A DNA stretch of 64,000 nt from Patescibacteria group bacterium (GTDB taxonomy: Bacteria > Patescibacteriota > Minisyncoccia > UBA6257 > GWB1-50-10). The position numbers and the translations under genes were made by a program. Positions within the stretch are counted from its first letter, which is position 1, and the number at the start of each line of letters is the position of its first letter. The stretch covers positions 2,571 through 66,570 of the forward strand of contig JASEIC010000001.1 in NCBI GenBank assembly GCA_030017555.1. Direction: 5' to 3'. Positions 2,357-44,015 of this stretch are shown here, one piece after another. A model generated the notes under the pieces. The model ran no database searches, was not told the origin of the DNA, and saw only the letters and a list, made by a program, of their open reading frames with translations.

Positions 2357-2941
2357 CTATCTTACTAATAATAACTCACTTAAAGGAATTTTTGTACGGC
2401 AGTTTGCGCATAAATAAGAATGATCAATTAACGAAAAATAACTTATTTCCTTATCACCGCAGTTTTCGCATTTAGCTGCTTTCGGATCATAACCAAAGAT
2501 TTTAAGAAAAAAACCAAAATCAATAAATGCCTTTTTAAAAACCCTGATAAGCGAATGCCACAAATTGAGATCTGAAACATGAAAAGGCGCGAAAATCTTG
2601 ACAATAAAAGCTAATTCCAAAGCCCGCCTTAAACTGCCCCGATTTTGTCTAAGCAATGAAAACCGGTTTTCGGTCAAAGCGTCGGTTATGGTAAATCCCT
2701 CCTTTTTTACCAATCGTACAGTCACTAAATTCAAAACATCAAGATGGGGAGAAAATTTCGAGAGCGGCTTTCGCCCCGCAATAACCTTAGCCGTAATCCG
2801 GCCGAAATCTTTTGTATAAAGTTGAACCTCTCGATCTGTTTCCCGATATGGTTTAATACCCAAAACAATAGCTTCGGTTATATAATCTTTCACAAAATAA
2901 AAAAAATAACTAATAAATAAACAAGCTCCAGTAAGTATCAA
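2357..2941 (-). CDS. recO: DNA repair protein RecO. The true start is probably an internal GTG/TTG near 2893, because the annotated 5' end overlaps the upstream gene.
   Basis: RecO-like N-terminal OB region (GIKPYRETDREVQLYTKDFGRITAKVIAGRK...). C-terminal CxxC...CxxC zinc motif (CENCGDK...CANCRTK). Confidence 0.65.
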   Translation of the reverse strand: MILTGACLFISYFFYFVKDYITEAIVLGIKPYRETDREVQLYTKDFGRITAKVIAGRKPLSKFSPHLDVLNLVTVRLVKKEGFTITDALTENRFSLLRQNRGSLRRALELAFIVKIFAPFHVSDLNLWHSLIRVFKKAFIDFGFFLKIFGYDPKAAKCENCGDKEISYFSLIDHSYLCANCRTKIPLSELLLVR

Positions 2942-3314
2942 GATTATAAATACCGCCGCCGGTAGTCATGAGCAAAAGCGCCGCGCCAGCGATTAAAAGA
3001 TCAAGCTCATAACCATGAATAAAACCTTTTTTCCGGTTGACTTTTAAAATAGCGATTAAAAAACGCGCGAAAACAAGAAAAGCGAAAACTTGAGTCAAGA
3101 ACCCGATGATTAAAGCAACGCCGCCGACAAATTCAACGAGCCCGACAATTGTCCCCCAAAACATACCCGGTTTAAATCCTGTTGTCGCAAAATTTTGGGC
3201 GTTAGTTTTTAAATCTTTTATTTTGGGCCAGCCGTAGACAACTAAAATAACGCCCAAAACAACGCGCAAAATCAAAATCGCCCAATCATTAAAAATCAAT
3301 AAAGGCTGAATCAT
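2910..3314 (-). CDS. DoxX-family small integral membrane protein
   Basis: 134 aa with four hydrophobic helices and a DoxX-like pattern (WAILILRVVLGVILVVYGWPKI...GFKPGMFWGTIVGLVEFVGGVALIIGF). Confidence 0.55.
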   Translation of the reverse strand: MIQPLLIFNDWAILILRVVLGVILVVYGWPKIKDLKTNAQNFATTGFKPGMFWGTIVGLVEFVGGVALIIGFLTQVFAFLVFARFLIAILKVNRKKGFIHGYELDLLIAGAALLLMTTGGGIYNLDTYWSLFIY

Positions 3315-3429
3315 AAAATAAATGAAACAAACGACCTTTCGTTTAAACTATTATAAACTAATTAATTAAAATAAAAAACACCGATGTTATTAAATTAATC
3401 ATCGGCATTTTTAAATATTTTTTAACTTT

Positions 3430-3615
3430 TTACTTTTTTACCAATTCTAATATCCGCTTCAATGTTTCGTTTAAATCATCTAATCCCGCCACAATATTCT
3501 TTAAATATTGGCACGTCAATCCAAAAAAAACAGCAACAACCAACGCTATCCCAGGATCAATGCTTGCAGTTATTAAACTAATTAAAATTATTAAAAAAAC
3601 AAGCCATAAAACCAT
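3430..3615 (-). CDS. Small membrane protein (hypothetical)
   Basis: 61 aa with two hydrophobic helices. Weak support. Confidence 0.3.
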   Translation of the reverse strand: MVLWLVFLIILISLITASIDPGIALVVAVFFGLTCQYLKNIVAGLDDLNETLKRILELVKK

Positions 3616-3815
3616 ATAAACCTTTCCGATTTTTATTTTATAGATTAAGCTTTTACCATTATATAAAGAATCTAAGAATATGTCAAATCAAAATAAAAAA
3701 GGCGCCGATATTCATTGTATCGGTCGCCTTGAAGCCTGTCGCGGCTTTTTGTTAACATATCAAACGGCGTAACCGTTCTCAAATATTAACCCGCCGGCTT
3801 GCAACTCATCGAAAA

Positions 3816-4232
3816 CTATTCCGCGTCTAAAAAATCAAGATCAACAAGTTTACGCTCTAACTTTTCGCCGTCTCTTCTTGTTTCGTAAACTTCACGATAA
3901 GAAATCGTAACCTGTTGTCCTTTTTTAAATCGTTCCCATAATCTTTTGGTTTTTCTCTGGTTTTTTTCAATTATAAAAATTGTGCCGTGCTTTTCGCATC
4001 TAAAAATAACTACGTATTTCTCCGCAACGGAGATACTTGTAAGTTGCAGACCTAACTTACCATCCATATCGATACTAGGACTTAAGCCACTACCATGACG
4101 CGAGGGCACATAAATAAGATCAACAATTTCTCCTTTTTCACGAAGAACTGGTGAGTATTCTTTCTCGGTCGTTACACAACCAGTAAAAACAGATAATACA
4201 AGAACTGTAAATAGAATGCCTACTATTTTCAT
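3816..4232 (-). CDS. Lipoprotein (hypothetical)
   Basis: Signal peptide with lipobox LSVFTGC. 138 aa. Confidence 0.5.
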   Translation of the reverse strand: MKIVGILFTVLVLSVFTGCVTTEKEYSPVLREKGEIVDLIYVPSRHGSGLSPSIDMDGKLGLQLTSISVAEKYVVIFRCEKHGTIFIIEKNQRKTKRLWERFKKGQQVTISYREVYETRRDGEKLERKLVDLDFLDAE

Positions 4233-4356
4233 ACATATTTCTCCTTACATGTCTTTTGAATAGAATTGAATTGTTAATTAAACTCATATAAGTATAGCAT
4301 ACTATAATGCTCATGTCAAGTTTCCAAAAAACGAGGAAAAATCTACTATATTTAAT

Positions 4357-5559
4357 ATGAAAATACTGGCGATTGAAACATCCTGTGATGAAACTGCTTT
4401 GGCTTATATTGAAGCAAGGGACGGAATTACAAAACCGCGATTTAAGATTTTAGAAAATCTTGTTTCATCGCAAATTAATATCCATCGGCCTTGGGGCGGC
4501 GTAGTGCCGAACCTTGCCAAACGCGAACACATAAAAAATCTGCCTTTAATTTTTAAAAAATTCTTTAAAAAACATAAACCGAAACCAAATCTCATGGCTG
4601 TAACCGTCGGGCCTGGACTTGAACCAGCTCTTTGGGCAGGAATTAATTTTGCTCTAACCATTCACAAAGATTATTTCTCGTCCGCCAGCCGGCGAATCCC
4701 GCTTGTCGGCGCAAACCACTTAGAAGGGCATCTTCATAGTTTTTTACTGCCAAAAACAACTGGCGAAGAAATTTTAAAGAAAAGAGGGTTAAAATTTATT
4801 TTTCCGGCGGTGGCGCTTGTGGTAAGCGGCGGGCACACGATTTTACTTTTAATGAAATCGCTCACTGATTGGAAAAAATTAGGCGAAACCCGAGACGATG
4901 CTGTTGGCGAAGCATTTGATAAAGTGGCGAAAATGCTAAATCTTCCTTATCCCGGCGGACCGGAAATCTCCCGTCTCGCTTTAACCGGCGATTCCAAAGC
5001 CATTAAATTCCCCCGCCCAATGATTAATTCGGAAAGTTATGATTTTAGTTTTTCGGGACTCAAAACATCCGTACTTTATTTTCTCAAAAACAATGAAGCT
5101 AAAATTGTTTTTGATATGGGCATGTCCAAAACGCGTTCAAAAATCAACGAACGAATAGAAAATTTACCGGGCGCCCGCGCGCGAAGCAAACAGGGCGGTA
5201 AATTTTCGTCTATGAGCGAGTTAGATTTTAACGCGCGTGGACTTGCAAATAAAAAAATAATTTTAGCTGACATAGCCGCAAGCTTTCAACAAGCCGCTAT
5301 TGATGCTTTGGTCAAAAAAACAATGCGCGCTGCCAATGAATTCAGGATAAAATCAATTCTTCTTTCTGGCGGCGTGGCTGCCAACAAACTACTCCGTGAA
5401 ACTTTGATAAAAGAAACCAAAAACAATAACTTAAACTTTTTTGTGCCGCCGATAAATTTTAACACTGACAATGCCGTCATGATCGCCGTCGCGGCGTATA
5501 TTAACTTTTTAAAAAACAAAAAATATCCGCTTCGTGCCAATGGAATTTTAAATTTATAA
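4357..5559 (+). CDS. tsaD: tRNA N6-adenosine threonylcarbamoyltransferase TsaD (Kae1/YgjD family) with a lineage-specific insertion
   Basis: MKILAIETSCDETALAYIE N-terminus, GANHLEGHL metal-binding motif, and C-terminal SGGVAANKLLRE. Confidence 0.85.
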   Translation: MKILAIETSCDETALAYIEARDGITKPRFKILENLVSSQINIHRPWGGVVPNLAKREHIKNLPLIFKKFFKKHKPKPNLMAVTVGPGLEPALWAGINFALTIHKDYFSSASRRIPLVGANHLEGHLHSFLLPKTTGEEILKKRGLKFIFPAVALVVSGGHTILLLMKSLTDWKKLGETRDDAVGEAFDKVAKMLNLPYPGGPEISRLALTGDSKAIKFPRPMINSESYDFSFSGLKTSVLYFLKNNEAKIVFDMGMSKTRSKINERIENLPGARARSKQGGKFSSMSELDFNARGLANKKIILADIAASFQQAAIDALVKKTMRAANEFRIKSILLSGGVAANKLLRETLIKETKNNNLNFFVPPINFNTDNAVMIAVAAYINFLKNKKYPLRANGILNL

Positions 5560-8919: not shown

Positions 8920-9360
8920 ATGAAAGAAGAAAATAAAAATGATATCTTTGTAGAACTTGCTAAAGTCAAAAACAAACCGATGCCTATTAAAGTTGAAAAT
9001 GACGAAGATAATGACATTACCGAAGAAGAAGGACAGCTTACTGTTGATGTTTATCAAGATCAGGACAATATCATTGTTCAATCAACAGTCGCGGGCATAA
9101 AACCGGATGATATCGACATCAGCATTACCAATGAATCGGTAATTATTCGCGGTAAAAGAGAAAAAGAAGAAGCAATCGAAGATAAAGATTATTTTTACCA
9201 AGAGTGTTTCTGGGGCGCTTTTTCCCGTTCAATAATCTTGCCGCAGGAAATTGACCCGGACAAATCCCAAGCTTCAATGAAAAACGGCGTTCTGACCGTT
9301 AAAATGCCGAAGTTAAATCGCGCTAAAACAAAAACATTAAAAGTAAAAACTGATTTATAA
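8920..9360 (+). CDS. Hsp20 / alpha-crystallin family small heat-shock protein
   Basis: LTVDVYQDQDNIIVQSTVAGIKPDDIDISITNESVIIRGKRE...NGVLTVKMPK alpha-crystallin domain. Confidence 0.8.
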   Translation: MKEENKNDIFVELAKVKNKPMPIKVENDEDNDITEEEGQLTVDVYQDQDNIIVQSTVAGIKPDDIDISITNESVIIRGKREKEEAIEDKDYFYQECFWGAFSRSIILPQEIDPDKSQASMKNGVLTVKMPKLNRAKTKTLKVKTDL

Positions 9361-40021: not shown

Positions 40022-40075
40022 AACTCTTTTAGTAGATTTTTATTTGTTTGCGAGTTAGGATAATCTCGTATAACT

Positions 40076-40160
40076 GGGCAGGTGATGAAACTGGCAGACA
40101 TGCAAGGTTTAGGACCTTGTGCCGCAAGGCTTGAGGGTTCAAATCCCTCCCTGCCCACCA
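40076..40160 (+). tRNA. tRNA-Leu (anticodon UAG), class II with long variable arm; CCA encoded
   Basis: gggcaggtgatgaaactggcagacatgcaaggtttaggaccttgtgccgcaaggcttgagggttcaaatccctccctgcccacca. Anticodon loop ttTAGga. Confidence 0.85.
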
Positions 40161-40194
40161 AAACAGAACTGATTGGCTTTTTGAGAGTCAGATC

Positions 40195-40219
40195 GTGGGC
40201 GGCCGCAACGGCCGCCCAC
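40195..40219 (+). terminator. Very stable GC hairpin (gtgggcggccg caa cggccgcccac) followed by a U-rich tract; probable tRNA-Leu terminator
   Basis: 11-bp perfect GC stem with a 3-nt loop, then tgattttg. Confidence 0.55.
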
Positions 40220-40220
40220 T

Positions 40221-40297
40221 GATTTTGCGCACGACCAATTTCTTCTAAGAAGGAAAATAAAGTTTTTCTGCTCGGCTCCGCGCGAGTACGCGCGGGC
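40221..40297. repeat. Left copy of a ~77-bp GC-rich inverted repeat flanking gene 40365..42755
   Basis: gattttgcgcacgaccaatttcttctaagaaggaaaataaagtttttctgctcggctccgcgcgagtacgcgcgggc. Its reverse complement matches 42919..42995 with 1 mismatch and 1 indel. Confidence 0.85.
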
Positions 40298-40364
40298 TAA
40301 AAATAAAAATGGATGATAGTATTAAAATGTGGTATATTTGTACTATCGTATTTAACACAATCCC

Positions 40365-42755
40365 ATGCCTAAATCTATCAAGCACAATATACTTCCAGTT
40401 GTAGTTTTTATCACCGGAGCGTGCGTTTTGATTGTGGAAATAGTCGCAACTCGTGTGCTTTCTCCGTTTTATGGAAACACGATTTTTACAGTTTCCAGCG
40501 TAATTAGTGTCATCCTTGCAGCTTTGAGTGTTGGGTATTATGCAGGAGGTCGGCTTGCTGATCGTCACCCTTCTTTACGTTGGTTTTTCAGCATAATTCT
40601 TTTGAGCGGTCTTGCTTTACTCTTGTTTCATTTTATAGGCGCAATCGCTCTGCCGATTTTGGGGTATACGCTCTCAATTTCGGCTGGGCCGTTGATTTCT
40701 TCTTTACTTCTATTTTTCATCCCAGCATTTCTACTTGGCACATTATCTCCATACGCCGTTAAACTTCAAAGCGTAAATTTTCCTGAGCAAGGCATTGGAA
40801 GTGTTGCGGGAAAAATTTTCTTTTGGTCTACACTTGGAAGTATCGTCGGAAGTTTATTAGCCGGCTTTATACTCATTCCGTATTTCGGAGTAAATCAGAT
40901 TATCATTGCAAACGGAGTTGTATTATTTTTTCTCGGTTTGATACCGCTCTCAATATTAGGTGAGAAAAAATATCTAGGTAAATCTTTGTTGGCATTGATA
41001 ATTCTCGTTAGTATCTCGCTATATATTTTCCACACAACAAGAGAAAATGTTTTATATAGCAAAGACGGAATATACGAAAAAATCACTATTTATGATGGTC
41101 AGTTTGCCGGACGGCCAACAAGATTTTTCGAGCAAGATCGTAGCAGATCGGGCGCTATGTTTTTAGATTCCAATGACCCAAAAGATTTAGTGTATGACTA
41201 TACAAAATATTATTCACTCTACAAAGTATTCAATCCGGAAGTTAAAAATGCCCTCGTAATAGGCGGCGGCATGTATTCGATCCCAAAAGCATTGCTCGCA
41301 GATTTACCGAACGCAACTATTGATGTTTCAGAAATAGAGCCTTTATTATACGACCTCGCAAAAAAATACTTCGGCGTAAATGACAATCCGCGACTCCACA
41401 ATTACATCAATGACGGCCGCCGCCTACTTCACGATTCAAGCAAAAATTATGACCTGATATTTAGCGATGTGTGCTATTCGCTTTCAATACCAGCACACTT
41501 CACGACTGAAGATTTTTTTGAAATTGCTAAAGAGAAACTAAATAAAGATGGAATTTTCGTTACGAACATAATAGGCGATTTGTCACGCCAGCAACCCTCG
41601 CTAATCATGTCGGAAATCAAAACTTTTCAAGCTGTTTTTCCAAATAGTTATTTTTTTGCGGTTGAATCACCAAAAAAAACTCAATCGCAAAATATCATTT
41701 TTGTTGGGTACAATAGCGATAAACATATTGATCTGAACGCACCGTCAATCATTGCTAATTCCGACCCGATTATCCGTTCTCTACAAAATAAAGTTATAGA
41801 TACGAATAGATTTGATTTATCGCCCTATCCGATAATGACGGACAATTACTCGCCAGTAGAATATTTGACGGGCCAAGTGTTGCAAAGAACTTTCAATCAG
41901 AAGGATTTTTTTGATGGAAAAGAAATGTTAGCAATTATTGATCAACAATTACGCTATGGCCCGCGTTATCCAACCGCAACTGGGCATAAGCAAGTACAAG
42001 ATTTTCTCGTTGCGGAAATGAAGGAGCTAACGCAAGAAGTAAAGACGCAAACATGGCAACACACCGAATCAAACGGGAAATCGTATGAATTGACAAACAT
42101 TATTGCTCGACTATATCCAACACAGACAAAGCGCATAATACTTGCAACACACTATGACAGTCAAAAAAATTCTTTCAAAAATTCCTCCAATCAAGATCAA
42201 CCATCGCCAGGTGCCAACAATTCAGCTTCAGGCGTTGCGATATTAGTCGAGCTGGCTCGTCTTTTGGGTAATTCTCATGTGTTGCCGAGCGTTGGTGTTG
42301 ATATTGTATTTTTTGACGGCAAGGAAGGAGAGGAAAATCAAAGTGGAGATTTTACGAACTGGAAACCGCTCGGCTCCGCTTATTTTGCACAACATCTGAA
42401 CGAAATTTATGGGAATAATAAACCAGTGTCCGGTGTTGTGTTAGATATGGTCTGTGATAAGGATTTGAAAATTTCTAAAGAGGCTTCGTCTGTGAAAAAC
42501 GCTCCAACTCAAACAGAAGCATTTTGGAATATCGCGCGAAAAATCAACAGCAATGTATTTCAGAATAAGGTTGGGCAAGAAATTCGAGACGATCATACTT
42601 CACTCAACCAAGCTGGCATACCGAGCTTTCTTGTGATTGATTACGATTATCCTCAATACGCGACCACGAACGATACTATAGATAAATGCAGTTCTGAAAG
42701 TTTACAAACGGTTGCCGAGGCAGTTTGGAATTATGTCTACTACGGAGTTCAATAA
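40365..42755 (+). CDS. Three-part fusion: N-terminal MFS-like polytopic membrane domain, central spermidine-synthase-like (class I MTase fold) domain, and C-terminal M28-peptidase / glutaminyl-cyclase-like domain
   Basis: ~8 N-terminal TMs. Spermidine-synthase-like core VIGGGMYSIPKALL...DLIFSDV. C-terminal M28-like ATHYDSQKN...PGANNSASGVAILVELARLL...VVLDMV. Confidence 0.6.
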   Translation: MPKSIKHNILPVVVFITGACVLIVEIVATRVLSPFYGNTIFTVSSVISVILAALSVGYYAGGRLADRHPSLRWFFSIILLSGLALLLFHFIGAIALPILGYTLSISAGPLISSLLLFFIPAFLLGTLSPYAVKLQSVNFPEQGIGSVAGKIFFWSTLGSIVGSLLAGFILIPYFGVNQIIIANGVVLFFLGLIPLSILGEKKYLGKSLLALIILVSISLYIFHTTRENVLYSKDGIYEKITIYDGQFAGRPTRFFEQDRSRSGAMFLDSNDPKDLVYDYTKYYSLYKVFNPEVKNALVIGGGMYSIPKALLADLPNATIDVSEIEPLLYDLAKKYFGVNDNPRLHNYINDGRRLLHDSSKNYDLIFSDVCYSLSIPAHFTTEDFFEIAKEKLNKDGIFVTNIIGDLSRQQPSLIMSEIKTFQAVFPNSYFFAVESPKKTQSQNIIFVGYNSDKHIDLNAPSIIANSDPIIRSLQNKVIDTNRFDLSPYPIMTDNYSPVEYLTGQVLQRTFNQKDFFDGKEMLAIIDQQLRYGPRYPTATGHKQVQDFLVAEMKELTQEVKTQTWQHTESNGKSYELTNIIARLYPTQTKRIILATHYDSQKNSFKNSSNQDQPSPGANNSASGVAILVELARLLGNSHVLPSVGVDIVFFDGKEGEENQSGDFTNWKPLGSAYFAQHLNEIYGNNKPVSGVVLDMVCDKDLKISKEASSVKNAPTQTEAFWNIARKINSNVFQNKVGQEIRDDHTSLNQAGIPSFLVIDYDYPQYATTNDTIDKCSSESLQTVAEAVWNYVYYGVQ

Positions 42756-42918
42756 AAAGTAGCCCGCGCCCGCCGAAAATCCGCCGCGCATTCCTCCCGC
42801 ACCCTCCTGCGCGGCGGATACAAAATCTCGCAGTTTTGAAAAAAGAGCCGAGGCAAAGCAAATCCTTTTCCTCCCGCAAAAATAGTTTTGCTTTGCCTTG
42901 TCCGCTTTGTGTCCCGCC

Positions 42919-42995
42919 GCTCGCGCGTACTCGCGCGGAGCCGAGCAGAAAAACTTTATTTTCCTTCTTAGAAGAAATTGGTCGTGCGCAAATCC
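42919..42995. repeat. Right copy of the ~77-bp inverted repeat
   Basis: gctcgcgcgtactcgcgcggagccgagcagaaaaactttattttccttcttagaagaaattggtcgtgcgcaaatc is the reverse complement of 40221..40297. Confidence 0.85.
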
Positions 42996-43130
42996 GAAAA
43001 GCAAGGAACATTTTTCTTTGAGATTGCCGAGTGAAGCAAGGCGGTGGCGGGACGATTCATTCAGCGATTTTGGAAATAGGTGCGAGCTTGGTACAATAGA
43101 GACACCAAAATTTGAAGGTAACTACAAAAT

Positions 43131-44015
43131 TTATTTTCTTCTTCGGCCATGGAAAGCTTCGTGAACTTCGCGAAGTTCTTTATTGGTAATGTGCGTGTAA
43201 ATCTGAGTCGTTGAGATGTTGGCGTGCCCCAGAAGCTCCTGGACCGAGCGCAAATCCGCGCCGTTTATCAAAAGATCGGTCGCAAAACAATGTCTTAAGA
43301 GATGCGGATGAACTTTTTTAGAAATCCCGGCCTCACGAGACCTTAAATCAACTAATCGCTCAACTGCTCGAGGCGTAATTCGTCCAATAACTTCGTTGCT
43401 CTTTGTTAAACTCACAAAAAGAGCTTCTTCAATATCAGTTCGTTTATTTAAATATTTTTTAATGGTTTGTTTTGCCATATCAGCCAGAAAAACAACACGC
43501 AATTTATCGCCTTTGCCGCGGATAGATATTTCACCACGCTCCAAATCAATATTGCGATTTAACTTGCAAAGTTCAGATAACCGAAGACCCGTAGAAAACA
43601 GGATTTCTAAAATCGCGCGATCCCTCAAGCTCCGAAGATCGTTGCCGCCTGAAGCATTAAGCAAGCGTTCTAATTCTTTATAATCCAAAATTTCGATATC
43701 GCGACGCGAAACTTTTGGCAATTCAATTGTTTCGGGAGATAAAACTTCTATACCGCGTTTAATTAAATATTTTAAAAAATTTCTGATGGCAATGACATAA
43801 TAGCTTTGGGTTATTTTTTTCAGTTCTTGCCTTGAAAGGGAAACGCGAAAACTTCTTATCACTTCGGGCGTAATATCTTTTACTTTTTTAATGTTTGTTC
43901 CTTTTACGAATGCATTTAAATAACGCTCATAATTTTCCCGGGTTTTCAAAGACCGGTTTTTTTCAACTTCCAAATAATCCAGGTAGTCTTTTAAATAATT
44001 TTCTATTTCACTCAT
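43131..44015 (-). CDS. Tyrosine recombinase, XerC/XerD-like
   Basis: Catalytic R...HxxR...Y tetrad (LRDRAILEILFSTGLRLSEL; HLLRHCFATDLL; GHANISTTQIYTH). 294 aa. Confidence 0.8.
   Translation of the reverse strand: MSEIENYLKDYLDYLEVEKNRSLKTRENYERYLNAFVKGTNIKKVKDITPEVIRSFRVSLSRQELKKITQSYYVIAIRNFLKYLIKRGIEVLSPETIELPKVSRRDIEILDYKELERLLNASGGNDLRSLRDRAILEILFSTGLRLSELCKLNRNIDLERGEISIRGKGDKLRVVFLADMAKQTIKKYLNKRTDIEEALFVSLTKSNEVIGRITPRAVERLVDLRSREAGISKKVHPHLLRHCFATDLLINGADLRSVQELLGHANISTTQIYTHITNKELREVHEAFHGRRRK

Follow-up and report, generated by a model that had tools for sequence, protein, structure and literature searches.

The window analysed here, a 64-kb (64,000 nt) stretch of Patescibacteria DNA, contains a block (40058-43130) that is probably a horizontally acquired, tRNA-adjacent integrative cassette, which lacks a recombinase gene of its own and could be inverted through its repeated ends, without acting as a promoter switch. 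The block would comprise a tRNA-Leu gene and a one-gene cassette, the ends of which appear to be inverted copies of parts of a GC-rich element, full length at the right and truncated at the left. Coordinates of the component features are listed in Table 1, and related loci are referred to by L numbers.

The gene is bounded by two inverted repeat arms of 74 nt that are 99% complementary and lie 2621 nt apart (repeat finder). In a gap-free alignment ~72 identical bases are followed by a single mismatch, such that 73 of the 74 bases are identical, and the sequences adjoining the two arms are unrelated. The initial annotation had described arms of ~77 bp with one mismatch and one indel, a fair extension of this pair, and had correctly noted that the repeats and their flanks are GC-rich (51-53% in the flanks, 37.6% for the window). 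The window contains exactly two copies of a 29-mer from the arm, with none expected from 100 shuffles, and the repeat finder reports no further inverted repeat of more than 40 nt in the 64 kb. A second, shorter inverted repeat (GCGCGGGCTA at the left, TAGCCCGCGC at the right) hugs the gene; the window shares homology with L100, L101 and L081 from 40291-40295 onwards, i.e. from the left GCGCGGGCTA, and with L101/L104 up to 42774. The same architecture is found in independent assemblies from different pipelines, and an assembly artefact is therefore ruled out. Small proteins encoded within the GC-rich flanks are also rejected, since ORFs on one strand there overlap ORFs on the other, and element copies vary by indels with lengths not divisible by three.

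Table 1. Features of the cassette, its ends and its immediate neighbours in the window.
Feature	Coordinates	Strand	Basis
tRNA-Leu(UAG), left boundary of variable block	40076..40160	+	ARAGORN, Rfam
Spacer and GC hairpin terminator, outer part of truncated left element copy	40161..40223	+	Terminator scan
Left arm, core module of element	40224..40297	+	Repeat finder, 29-mer count
Left half of short innermost inverted repeat, GCGCGGGCTA	40290..40299	+	Read from sequence
AT-rich leader with promoter-like box	40298..40364	+	Sequence; inside putatively invertible segment
Cargo gene, 796 aa	40365..42755	+	ORF list, Pfam
Full-length element copy, outer-to-inner on - strand	42756..43109	-	HMM, family alignment
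Right half of short innermost inverted repeat, TAGCCCGCGC	42760..42769	+	Read from sequence
Hairpin with 11-bp stem and conserved loop TTCCTCCCGCACCCTCC	42780..42818	+	Sequence
Second element hairpin, 19-nt arms	42851..42898	+	Repeat finder pair I9
Right arm, core module of element	42919..42992	-	Repeat finder, 29-mer count
P_out, outward promoter-like box (TTGGAA, 16 nt, TG-n-TACAAT)	43070..43097	+	Promoter scan
Xer-like tyrosine recombinase gene (xer), neighbour outside cassette	43131..44015	-	Pfam

As first annotated, the repeats enclose exactly one gene, with its own AT-rich leader, to the right of a tRNA-Leu(UAG) gene; all three observations are confirmed by the ORF list, by an extended -10 box in the leader (TGgTATATT at 40330-40338) and by ARAGORN, respectively. 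The product has an MFS-like membrane N-terminus, a spermidine-synthase-like domain and a Peptidase_M28 domain (Pfam), and more than 1286 homologues are found, all of about 797 aa. The leader and its box are conserved in L081 and L100. The tRNA gene ends at 40160 and element sequence begins at the next base, with a terminator stem-loop at 40195-40219 and a T-run after it. Sequence homologous to this spacer and hairpin is located 3' of a P_out-like box in L088 (53 nt at 87% identity); L003 also contains homologous sequence.

Judging from the copies found elsewhere, the arms are more than a duplication peculiar to this locus and represent the core module of a previously undescribed family of GC-rich elements. 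Family alignment describes the element as ~300 nt long, modular and rich in hairpins. A profile HMM identifies two copies in the 64-kb window, a full-length copy of ~350 nt at the right (match 43106-42774 on the - strand, E = 2e-60) and the truncated left copy (40196-40297). The right arm is only a part of the full-length copy, which also contains two further hairpins and the outward promoter-like box. A 30-nt core is present in 11 other Patescibacteria metagenome contigs, and contigs without the cargo gene carry copies 87-91% identical to the window arm; this is the range of identity of the left arm to L088, L092, L094 and L096. Searches found neither the 30-nt core in IMG/VR nor a 36-mer of the arm in GTDB representative genomes, and the full element has no match in a plasmid collection or a phage collection, and no Rfam family above threshold. 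An Rfam match to mir-2059 is attributed to chance, its 25.6 bits falling below the gathering score of 90. A literature search for invertons or a known repeat family in CPR returned nothing relevant.

Three further inverted pairs enclose other content. In L096 a 242-nt pair with 100% identity encloses five genes (a radical-SAM/ASCH/kinase/MazG cluster), and in L089 a 146-nt pair with 92% identity encloses a Fic gene. We also note that the pair in L093 is placed around the housekeeping gene proS, an arrangement that does not fit a pure cargo-cassette picture. Solo copies of the element adjoin unrelated genes, for example prfB and methyltransferases. Identity within inverted pairs is 98-100%, compared with 85-91% between loci, which points to ongoing exchange between the arms. 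It is very improbable that the window repeats are a decaying local duplication, the recombinationally inert remnant of an old rearrangement with no present role. Such a remnant could have a truncated left copy, as seen here, and no recombinase linked to it in the window, and the gene has homologues without flanking repeats (42 GTDB-representative and several metagenome loci; see below). It is at odds with the identity of the arms at 73 of 74 bases within unrelated adjoining sequence, with the independent recurrence of the architecture with arms of 98-100% identity, and with the presence of both orientations in sister lineages.

The modules of the element are not used equally at all loci. The hairpin module with the TTCCTCCCGCACCCTCC loop, not the core, builds the long inverted repeat in L081 and L100, and the region of the left arm in L100 (5781-5935) matches window coordinates 42760-42913 at 85%. 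Across copies the conserved loop is framed by four unrelated, self-complementary stems; this apparent covariation was read directly from seven sequences, the stems of which were out of register in a MAFFT alignment. Both the hairpin loop and a ~45-nt module are present in either orientation among copies. The second hairpin is conserved in L081 and L100. P_out lies at the outer end of the element, outside the repeats, and in the window it reads into the 3' end of xer. Homologous boxes are present in L081, L088, L089, L094, L096 and L100. The P_out box contains a T-loop-like GGTNCGAGC and ends in ..ACCA, and in L080 and L100 the box is followed by an inverted copy of the sequence downstream of the local tRNA gene.

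These structures raise the question of whether the repeats act in transcription or as RNA, either as insulator or terminator modules to either side of the acquired gene or through pairing between the 5' and 3' parts of a read-through transcript as a step in its processing, with the inverted arrangement reflecting that function and the inversions being incidental. The hairpin-rich element with its covarying stems and conserved loop, the predicted fold of the full-length copy on the + strand (z = -3.4), and the promoter-like box are consistent with this, as are the hairpins positioned 3' of the stop codon and followed by T-runs on the - strand, as for terminators halting read-through from xer. 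However, the left arm lies 3' of the strong terminator and 5' of the gene's own promoter, and it is therefore probably not included in the mRNA; occurrence of the loop and the ~45-nt module in either orientation argues against a strand-specific RNA, no Rfam family is matched, and mobility next to tRNA genes is left unexplained. We consider a transcriptional or RNA role quite unlikely as the primary explanation.

Comparison of the site in related genomes supports acquisition of the block. The two closest syntenic relatives, L099 and L113, do not have it. In L099 a tRNA-Leu gene is located 3 nt from the xer stop codon and is convergent with xer, such that tRNA-Leu does directly adjoin xer in a relative, a point of synteny that the initial annotation had proposed to check; the xer product is 88% identical in amino acid sequence. 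In L113 a tRNA-Val gene lies 1 nt from the xer stop codon, and L113 and L114 share the convergent tRNA-xer arrangement. The cassette would then occupy a position 3' of the tRNA gene, in the slot where the relatives have the xer stop codon abutting a convergent tRNA gene. The tRNA-Leu gene of the window is itself only 60% identical to its syntenic counterpart in L099, a tRNA-Leu(tag) gene, compared with 83-89% nucleotide identity for the flanking genes. The difference between these tRNAs indicates that the event was not a simple insertion, and the tRNA-Leu gene appears to have been swapped together with the variable block.

The cassette gene is similarly mobile in other genomes. At 82-90% nucleotide identity it follows four different tRNA genes, being found 3' of tRNA-Leu, tRNA-Thr (L100), tRNA-Cys (L101) and tRNA-Ser in different genomes, and proteins at least 90% identical are found in at least four unrelated genomic contexts. 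A same-strand tRNA gene is present no more than 300 nt upstream at 16 of 44 homologue loci. Flanking repeats exceed 22 nt at none of 42 homologue loci from GTDB species representatives, nor at the closer metagenome homologue loci L083-L087, and the gene therefore does not generally come with the repeat. No significant target-site duplication or partial tRNA copy was found flanking the block, the best direct repeat being the 8-nt CACCAAAA at 40156 and 43103 (p ~0.24), and the direct repeats in the 16 tRNA-adjacent relatives include nothing significant.

In sister lineages, this gene segment occurs both ways round. The repeats around the gene in these lineages are 62 nt with 98% identity (L081), 124 nt with 100% identity (L100) and 325 nt with 99% identity (L105). 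Coordinates 2564-2988 of L081 correspond to coordinates 4653-4229 of L080 in inverted orientation with 100% identity, and the arm variant in L080/L081 is as expected for a crossover inside the repeat. In L107 the gene end and repeat adjoin a 1.16-kb stretch from the upstream flank in L100/L106, inverted and 100% identical, and five further contigs break at repeats. Both orientations are seen in near-identical assemblies, of L080 and L081 and of L106 and L107; the two orientations are mostly from different samples and could be fixed strain differences. From these comparisons we infer, by analogy, that the 2.77-kb segment in the window may also flip. The long near-identical inverted ends would act as recombination substrates, with the flip in the window mediated by a recombinase in trans, or by homologous recombination or template switching across 74 identical bases. 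The repeat in the window is the core module and that in the sister lineages the inner-hairpin module, and there is no single recombination site common to all pairs, with the possible exception of the 10-nt GGGCTA/TAGCCC ends.

The earlier suggestion of a recombinase-driven invertible segment is thus supported with regard to inversion, given the two orientations in sister lineages, but not with regard to the enzyme, as xer behaves as a housekeeping gene that is syntenic in relatives without repeats. The gene was also described as lying next to a divergent Xer-like recombinase; the Xer assignment is supported by Pfam, but the two genes are convergent (tail to tail), with xer 136 nt from the right arm. 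Xer has thousands of homologues at 70-78% identity, and the xer-rpsO-NYN-pnp order is retained in L041, L099 and L113, all of which lack the cassette. Exact look-ups of the window's proteins, and of a 100%-identical Xer protein, lead to no contig. Other repeat-bearing contexts (L080, L089, L096 and L100) have no adjacent xer. On this comparative evidence, xer is most likely a housekeeping gene and not a part of the cassette. A programmed phase-variation inverton, in which the neighbouring Xer-like tyrosine recombinase flips the segment and regulates the enclosed gene, would account for a tyrosine recombinase gene so close to the right arm and for the inverted homologous segment in sister lineages. 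We give it very little credence, however: besides the housekeeping behaviour of xer and its absence beside repeats elsewhere, the repeat sequences differ between lineages, and promoter and gene flip as one. This last point, anticipated in the initial annotation, is borne out by the location of the promoter-like box and the entire ORF inside the repeats; with gene and promoter turning together, inversion does not amount to an ON/OFF promoter switch. At most, inversion would turn the gene from convergent to co-directional with xer, and it more probably arises as a side effect of ends prone to recombination.

If xer is set aside, the window lacks a candidate enzyme: xer is its only recombinase gene, no serine recombinase gene is found in the 64 kb, and there is no integrase among the ORFs of the block. 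Genes for large serine recombinases do adjoin the element in L080, L096 and L093 (as fragments in L093). The L080 protein is 523 aa long with Resolvase, Recombinase and Zn_ribbon_recom domains and is encoded at the outer end of the element; the L096 homologue is 44% identical to it and occupies the same position. In both, the element end equivalent to P_out faces the recombinase gene. A search of IMG/VR with the serine recombinase finds no relative, and there is thus no evidence for a prophage. From these three loci, a large serine recombinase would be the likeliest cognate enzyme of the family, and with no such gene in the window, the copy here would be non-autonomous or decayed. Integration at a tRNA gene by the adjacent recombinase, as put forward initially, is accordingly supported in its first part by the strong tRNA association across the gene family, but the adjacent xer is not the integrase, and it is a serine recombinase that recurs elsewhere. 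An integron cassette is rejected, as the copies are inverted and not direct, there is no IntI-type gene, and xer shows housekeeping synteny.

A transposon-like cassette with terminal inverted repeats, also suggested initially, agrees with a repeat family that brackets other cargo, with a block absent in relatives and with a gene in several contexts, but neither a significant target-site duplication nor a transposase was found. Each of the three initial proposals is thus borne out in part, and none in full. A non-autonomous transposon could take the form of a composite of MITE-like pairs with transposase supplied in trans, or of intramolecular replicative transposition leaving two inverted copies with the intervening DNA inverted. 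The solo copies by unrelated genes, the varied content inside inverted pairs (including proS), the 100% identical pairs in L096 and L100, and an outward promoter-like end as in many insertion sequences all fit such an element. It is nonetheless unlikely, in that no transposase gene is present among the ORFs scanned at element-bearing loci, where serine recombinases are the only such enzymes to recur, there are only two copies in the 64-kb window, and insertion at tRNA 3' ends points to site-specific integration.

The integrative cassette that we favour shares features with several known systems. Invertons, of which fimS, hin and the switches of Bacteroides and C. difficile are examples, are phase-variable DNA segments that can invert; as in these, an inverted repeat pair bounds a segment found naturally in both orientations (here in sister lineages). 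Unlike invertons, the segment is 2.5-2.8 kb long and includes a complete gene with its own promoter, with no uncoupling of the two, its arms are 62-325 nt rather than 10-30 nt and vary in sequence by lineage, the neighbouring recombinase is a housekeeping Xer, and the whole unit is mobile between genomes. Surveys of phase-variable invertible segments include PMC11602134 and PMC10028968. Tycheposons, cargo islands seeded at tRNA genes in streamlined genomes, carry tRNA-specific tyrosine recombinases in 474 of 501 cases and have direct partial-tRNA repeats at their flanks (bioRxiv 10.1101/2020.12.28.424599). Resemblances to tycheposons are the small cargo units 3' of several different tRNA genes, their presence or absence between close relatives, back-to-back units, fragmented integrase genes nearby and a small streamlined host genome; the linked enzyme here, however, is a large serine recombinase, no significant direct repeat was found, and the unit terminates in long copies of a structured element, in inverted orientation.

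The pdif modules of Acinetobacter plasmids consist of 28-bp XerC/XerD sites, inverted, around one to few genes without a transposase, and occur in many contexts in either orientation. The cassette is likewise a transposase-less unit of few genes with inverted ends, many contexts and an Xer gene nearby, but its Xer adjacency is not conserved and no 28-bp XerC/XerD site is identified in the arms, there being no dif consensus for the lineage. Modular intergenic repeats and MITEs, such as pneumococcal BOX, Neisseria Correia elements and REP/BIME, and also mobile insertion cassettes, offer a further comparison. The element resembles these in being dispersed, modular, hairpin-forming and GC-rich relative to the genome, with promoter- and terminator-like parts, and in that pairs can bracket passenger genes; it differs from them in having no sequence relation to these families, a low copy number in the window (two in 64 kb), and a link to tRNA genes and a large serine recombinase. 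Elements with large serine recombinases (Tn4451/TnpX, SCCmec Ccr and serine phage integrases) integrate and excise using att sites of ~40-50 bp. As in these elements, a predicted large serine recombinase is encoded at the element end in L080 and L096, but natural whole-gene inversion and structured ends of ~300 nt are not hallmarks of this class.

The genomes of Patescibacteria (CPR) are tiny, hardly any members of the group are in culture, and few of their mobile elements have been described. The locus provides a sequence-defined handle on gene exchange among them, with a repeat family marking acquired cassettes, a candidate recombinase and a preferred landing place at tRNA 3' ends, and it offers natural populations with the same cassette in both orientations. 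A broader and rather doubtful possibility is that the element family and its large serine recombinase could constitute a Patescibacteria gene-cassette platform with a role comparable to that of integrons or shufflons, which captures single genes or small operons, inserts them at many tRNA 3' ends, stacks them back to back and flips them through structured ends of ~300 nt. The ends of such a platform would also flip-flop their internal hairpin modules, giving inversions at three nested scales, the ~20-nt loop, the ~45-nt module and the 2.5-4 kb cargo. Large serine recombinases are an enzyme class widely used for genome engineering, and if the recombinase link is true, it would represent natural whole-gene inversion and integration by one of these enzymes. 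There is also a practical warning, in that many metagenome contigs of this gene family are about the length of the gene (2.5-4 kb), and those that were mapped end at the repeats.

The near-perfect inverted repeats reported in the initial annotation are borne out. Each arm is 74 nt long, the two are 99% complementary with a spacing of 2621 nt (repeat finder, window), and their gap-free alignment runs through approximately 72 identical bases followed by one mismatch, with unrelated sequence on both sides. A 29-mer of the arm has exactly two occurrences in the window and none in 100 shuffles, and no other inverted repeat comparable to the arms is present elsewhere in the 64 kb. The tRNA-Leu, the single enclosed gene, its AT-rich leader (with an extended -10 box) and the GC-rich flanks (51-53% GC versus 37.6% for the window) were likewise described correctly, but the Xer-like tyrosine recombinase gene (xer) is convergent with the enclosed gene and not divergent from it. 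The enclosed protein has an MFS-like membrane N-terminus, a spermidine-synthase-like domain and a C-terminal M28 peptidase domain.

Features of the inverted-repeat locus (window positions)
Feature	Position	Strand	Remark
tRNA-Leu(tag)	40076-40160		
Strong hairpin terminator	40195-40219		3' of tRNA-Leu(tag)
Truncated element copy	40196-40297		profile match
Left arm of inverted repeat	40224-40297	+	repeat finder
Short inverted repeat GGGCTA...TAGCCC	40290-40299 and 42760-42769		hugs the enclosed gene
Enclosed gene	40365-42755		796 aa; sole real gene between the arms
Full-length element copy	43106-42774	-	profile match, E = 2e-60
Right arm of inverted repeat	42919-42992	-	repeat finder
Xer-like gene	43131-44015	-	convergent with the enclosed gene

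The arms are part of a dispersed, modular element. A search for further arm copies outside the window finds the 30-nt arm core (TTTTCTGCTCGGCTCYGCGCGARTACGCGC) in at least 11 metagenome contigs, five of which are near-identical copies of one locus that is also represented by the GTDB locus L003, and the whole arm is matched at 87-91% in seven contigs that lack the enclosed gene. The repeats are real and of greater interest than the local duplication remnant that had been offered as an alternative. Alignment of the copies defines a conserved unit of approximately 300 nt rather than 74 nt, which contains, from its outer to its inner end, an outward promoter-like box (P_out), a GC hairpin, an approximately 45-nt module between 13-nt inverted repeats, the core with its CCGCGCG-AGTA-CGCGCGG hairpin, a GGGCGGCGGGGCTAC motif, and one or two more hairpins. 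In one of the inner hairpins the loop (GGAGGG..GGGAGGAA) is conserved, whereas the stems, of which four types can be counted, are unrelated in sequence yet always self-complementary; in the element-bearing locus L095 two stem types are combined in one chimeric hairpin. An approximately 20-nt hairpin loop and the approximately 45-nt module are found in either orientation among the copies, as seen in L088, L089, L094, L095, L096 and L098 (window counterpart, 42780-42818), and we note that these reversals represent, at small scale, the same type of event ('flip-flop') as the inversion of the whole gene. Within the window, a profile (HMM) built from the alignment recognizes just two copies. Searches of Rfam, plasmid and phage collections, and IMG/VR gave no match to the element, and the repeat family is apparently previously undescribed.

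Comparison with the closest relative by xer (L099; xer 88% identical at the amino acid level, flanking DNA 83-89% identical) reveals an empty site. L099 has the same gene order as the window (GT2 ... xer-rpsO-NYN-pnp), but its tRNA-Leu(tag) is positioned 3 nt from the xer stop codon and both the enclosed gene and the element are absent; homology with the window ends at 40057 and restarts at 43131. In a second relative (L113/L114; xer 78%) a tRNA-Val is 1 nt from the xer stop, so that the synteny comparison suggested in the initial annotation gives a tRNA directly beside xer, with the cassette absent, in both lineages. From synteny, the block at 40058-43130 therefore appears to be an insertion beside a tRNA. 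The tRNA-Leu(tag) at this site is just 60% identical between the window and L099 (8889-8972), compared with 83-89% (DNA) for the neighbouring protein genes, and because of this difference the window tRNA-Leu seems to have come with the block, or to have been replaced along with it. Upstream of the L099 tRNA-Leu is an approximately 85-nt GC-rich, partly palindromic stretch (8973-9054) that is absent from the window; it has short motifs in common with the outer part of the element and is not detected by the element profile. In L041 (3088-5632), a relative that keeps the xer-rpsO-NYN-pnp synteny, the same slot holds a related gene whose orientation is opposite to that in the window. This is a short form of 523 aa that lacks the M28 domain; it is encoded on the xer strand, its reading frame overlaps the xer stop codon, and tRNA-Leu(tag) comes after it.

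The enclosed gene is found in a variety of contexts. Its product has more than 1286 homologues, all of about 797 aa, and within a protein cluster at 90% identity or above the gene is present in at least four unrelated neighbourhoods: that of the window, one adjoining a serine recombinase and a tRNA-Ser, one 3' of a tRNA-Thr where a TPR gene lies on one side and a sugar transferase gene on the other, and, in a Giovannonibacteria genome, one 3' of a tRNA-Cys in the vicinity of dnaN and dnaA. When these contexts are compared, DNA homology stops at the short inverted repeat GGGCTA...TAGCCC. A same-strand tRNA is located within 300 nt upstream of the gene at 16 of 44 homologue loci, representing 11 different anticodons, whereas a random gene in a genome of ~1 Mb with ~45 tRNA genes would, by our rough estimate, be so placed in far fewer than 1% of cases; seven further loci among the 44 have a tRNA within 300 nt downstream. 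Full-length homologues with 51-76% identity are also present on contigs from bins not labelled as Patescibacteria (L019, L024, L027, L032, L046 and others), the labels being Acidobacteriota (a 1.7-Mb contig), Micavibrio, Gammaproteobacteria, Pseudomonadales and Bdellovibrionales; these reflect either transfer beyond Patescibacteria or mislabelled bins.

Junctions in assembled contigs indicate that the segment inverts in sister lineages of the window. L081, a 90% identical relative, has its own 62-nt inverted repeat (98% identical; 39-100 and 2564-2625), and its gene is followed by the right-hand arm plus 363 nt of the flank on that side. In L080, from a different sample, the same 425 nt is inverted and located 5' of the gene with 100% identity to L081, and the arm beside it has the right-hand-arm sequence variant, which is the outcome that a crossover within the repeat would give. 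L080 also ends in an un-flipped junction, such that either the sample held both forms or the flank is duplicated. A cleaner case is provided by L100, with a 124-nt, 100% identical inverted repeat and a protein encoded identically by eight contigs. L106 is colinear with L100, whereas in L107 the 3' end of the gene and the repeat are joined to 1.16 kb of inverted upstream flank with 100% identity; L105 has a repeat of 325 nt, and five contigs of 2.46-2.70 kb end at or within the repeats. The contig names imply k = 141, and because this exceeds the repeats we infer that real reads underlie the inversion junctions. In the sister lineages the long repeat is the counterpart of window 42760-42883, a stretch that the window has in single copy, and the window repeat corresponds to a part of the element that is single-copy in the sister lineages; the duplicated part has therefore shifted between lineages. 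Identity within an arm pair (98-100%) is always above that between loci (85-91%), which fits continuing exchange between the two arms.

The consequence of such a flip in the window would not be a promoter switch. As had been anticipated, the gene and its own promoter-like box would turn together, both being inside the repeats with P_out outside, and flipping therefore neither connects nor disconnects a promoter. The locus resembles an invertible segment bounded by inverted repeats, but lacks the property that defines a promoter inverton. A flip would change the enclosed gene from convergent to co-directional with xer, and would move hairpins resembling terminators of xer read-through (- strand) to the tRNA side. 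A shorter paralogue-like gene in L041 is co-directional with xer and overlaps it, so transcription together with xer would at least not be an unnatural arrangement. Inversion is more likely a by-product than a regulatory device.

Inverted element pairs also surround other cargo. In L096 a perfect 242-nt inverted repeat (163-404 and 4259-4500) encloses five genes, coding for a radical SAM protein, a weakly BpsA_C-like protein, an ASCH protein, a P-loop kinase and a MazG-like protein; in L089 a 146-nt repeat (92% identical) brackets a Fic-domain gene (665 aa); and in L093 a 163-nt repeat (99% identical; 611-772 and 3798-3960) brackets proS and a radical-SAM gene. The layout in the clear cases is that of the window, with one element copy 5' of the promoter belonging to the cargo and a second, inverted one after the last stop, and no directly oriented pairs were seen among the element-bearing loci. 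The second L096 cargo gene (1508-2803) weakly matches the C-terminal domain of the branched-chain polyamine synthase BpsA, at E = 4e-4, below the family cut-off; if real, this would be a second polyamine-related cargo in the element family. L093 (1-5900) also carries duplicated, inverted serine recombinase N-terminal fragments outside the repeat, and three copies of a promoter-like or T-loop-like box.

The three readings proposed initially, a cassette with terminal inverted repeats, an invertible segment and a tRNA-integrated element, each capture part of this organization. The locus is reminiscent of pdif modules, of cassettes that are composite or bounded by MITEs, and of modular repeats (BOX and Correia elements, for example); none of the features that define these families could be demonstrated. 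In its genomic behaviour it matches tycheposons, which are tRNA-seeded cargo islands (10.1101/2020.12.28.424599): both are small units beside many tRNAs that are present or absent between relatives, with units set back to back and with fragmented integrases. Unlike tycheposons, the window locus has no direct partial-tRNA repeats that we could find, its copy lacks an integrase, and the unit has long, inverted, structured ends.

The window encodes one tyrosine recombinase and, within its 64 kb, no serine recombinase. That the adjacent xer is the recombinase of the element is unlikely: xer appears to behave as a housekeeping gene, with thousands of homologues at 70-78% identity and with neighbours that are retained whether or not a relative has the cassette, and it is not found in the other element-bearing loci. 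The best candidate for the enzyme of the family, judged from linkage in three loci, is a large serine recombinase, because it recurs beside the element: L080 encodes a 523-aa protein of this type (2381-3952; Resolvase, Recombinase and Zn-ribbon domains) just beyond the outward promoter-like box, L096 has a 44% identical homologue in the equivalent position alongside different cargo, and L093 has N-terminal fragments (65% identical) upstream of the element preceding the same gene family. For any inversion in the window, homologous recombination or replication template switching over the 74 identical bases would be an equally simple route, and would likewise account for the hairpin loops and modules that are found flipped. 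Most of the L080 serine recombinase gene is itself surrounded by a perfect 120-nt inverted repeat (2444-2563 and 4116-4235, within 2362-4235) that takes in its last ~40 codons; one arm begins at the tRNA-Ser(gga) 3' end, the other directly after the promoter-like box of the element. In the window this box survives as a relic P_out at 43070-43097 and is aimed into xer from its 3' end; on the same strand a terminator-like hairpin follows at 43155-43177, making a short transcript antisense to xer conceivable.
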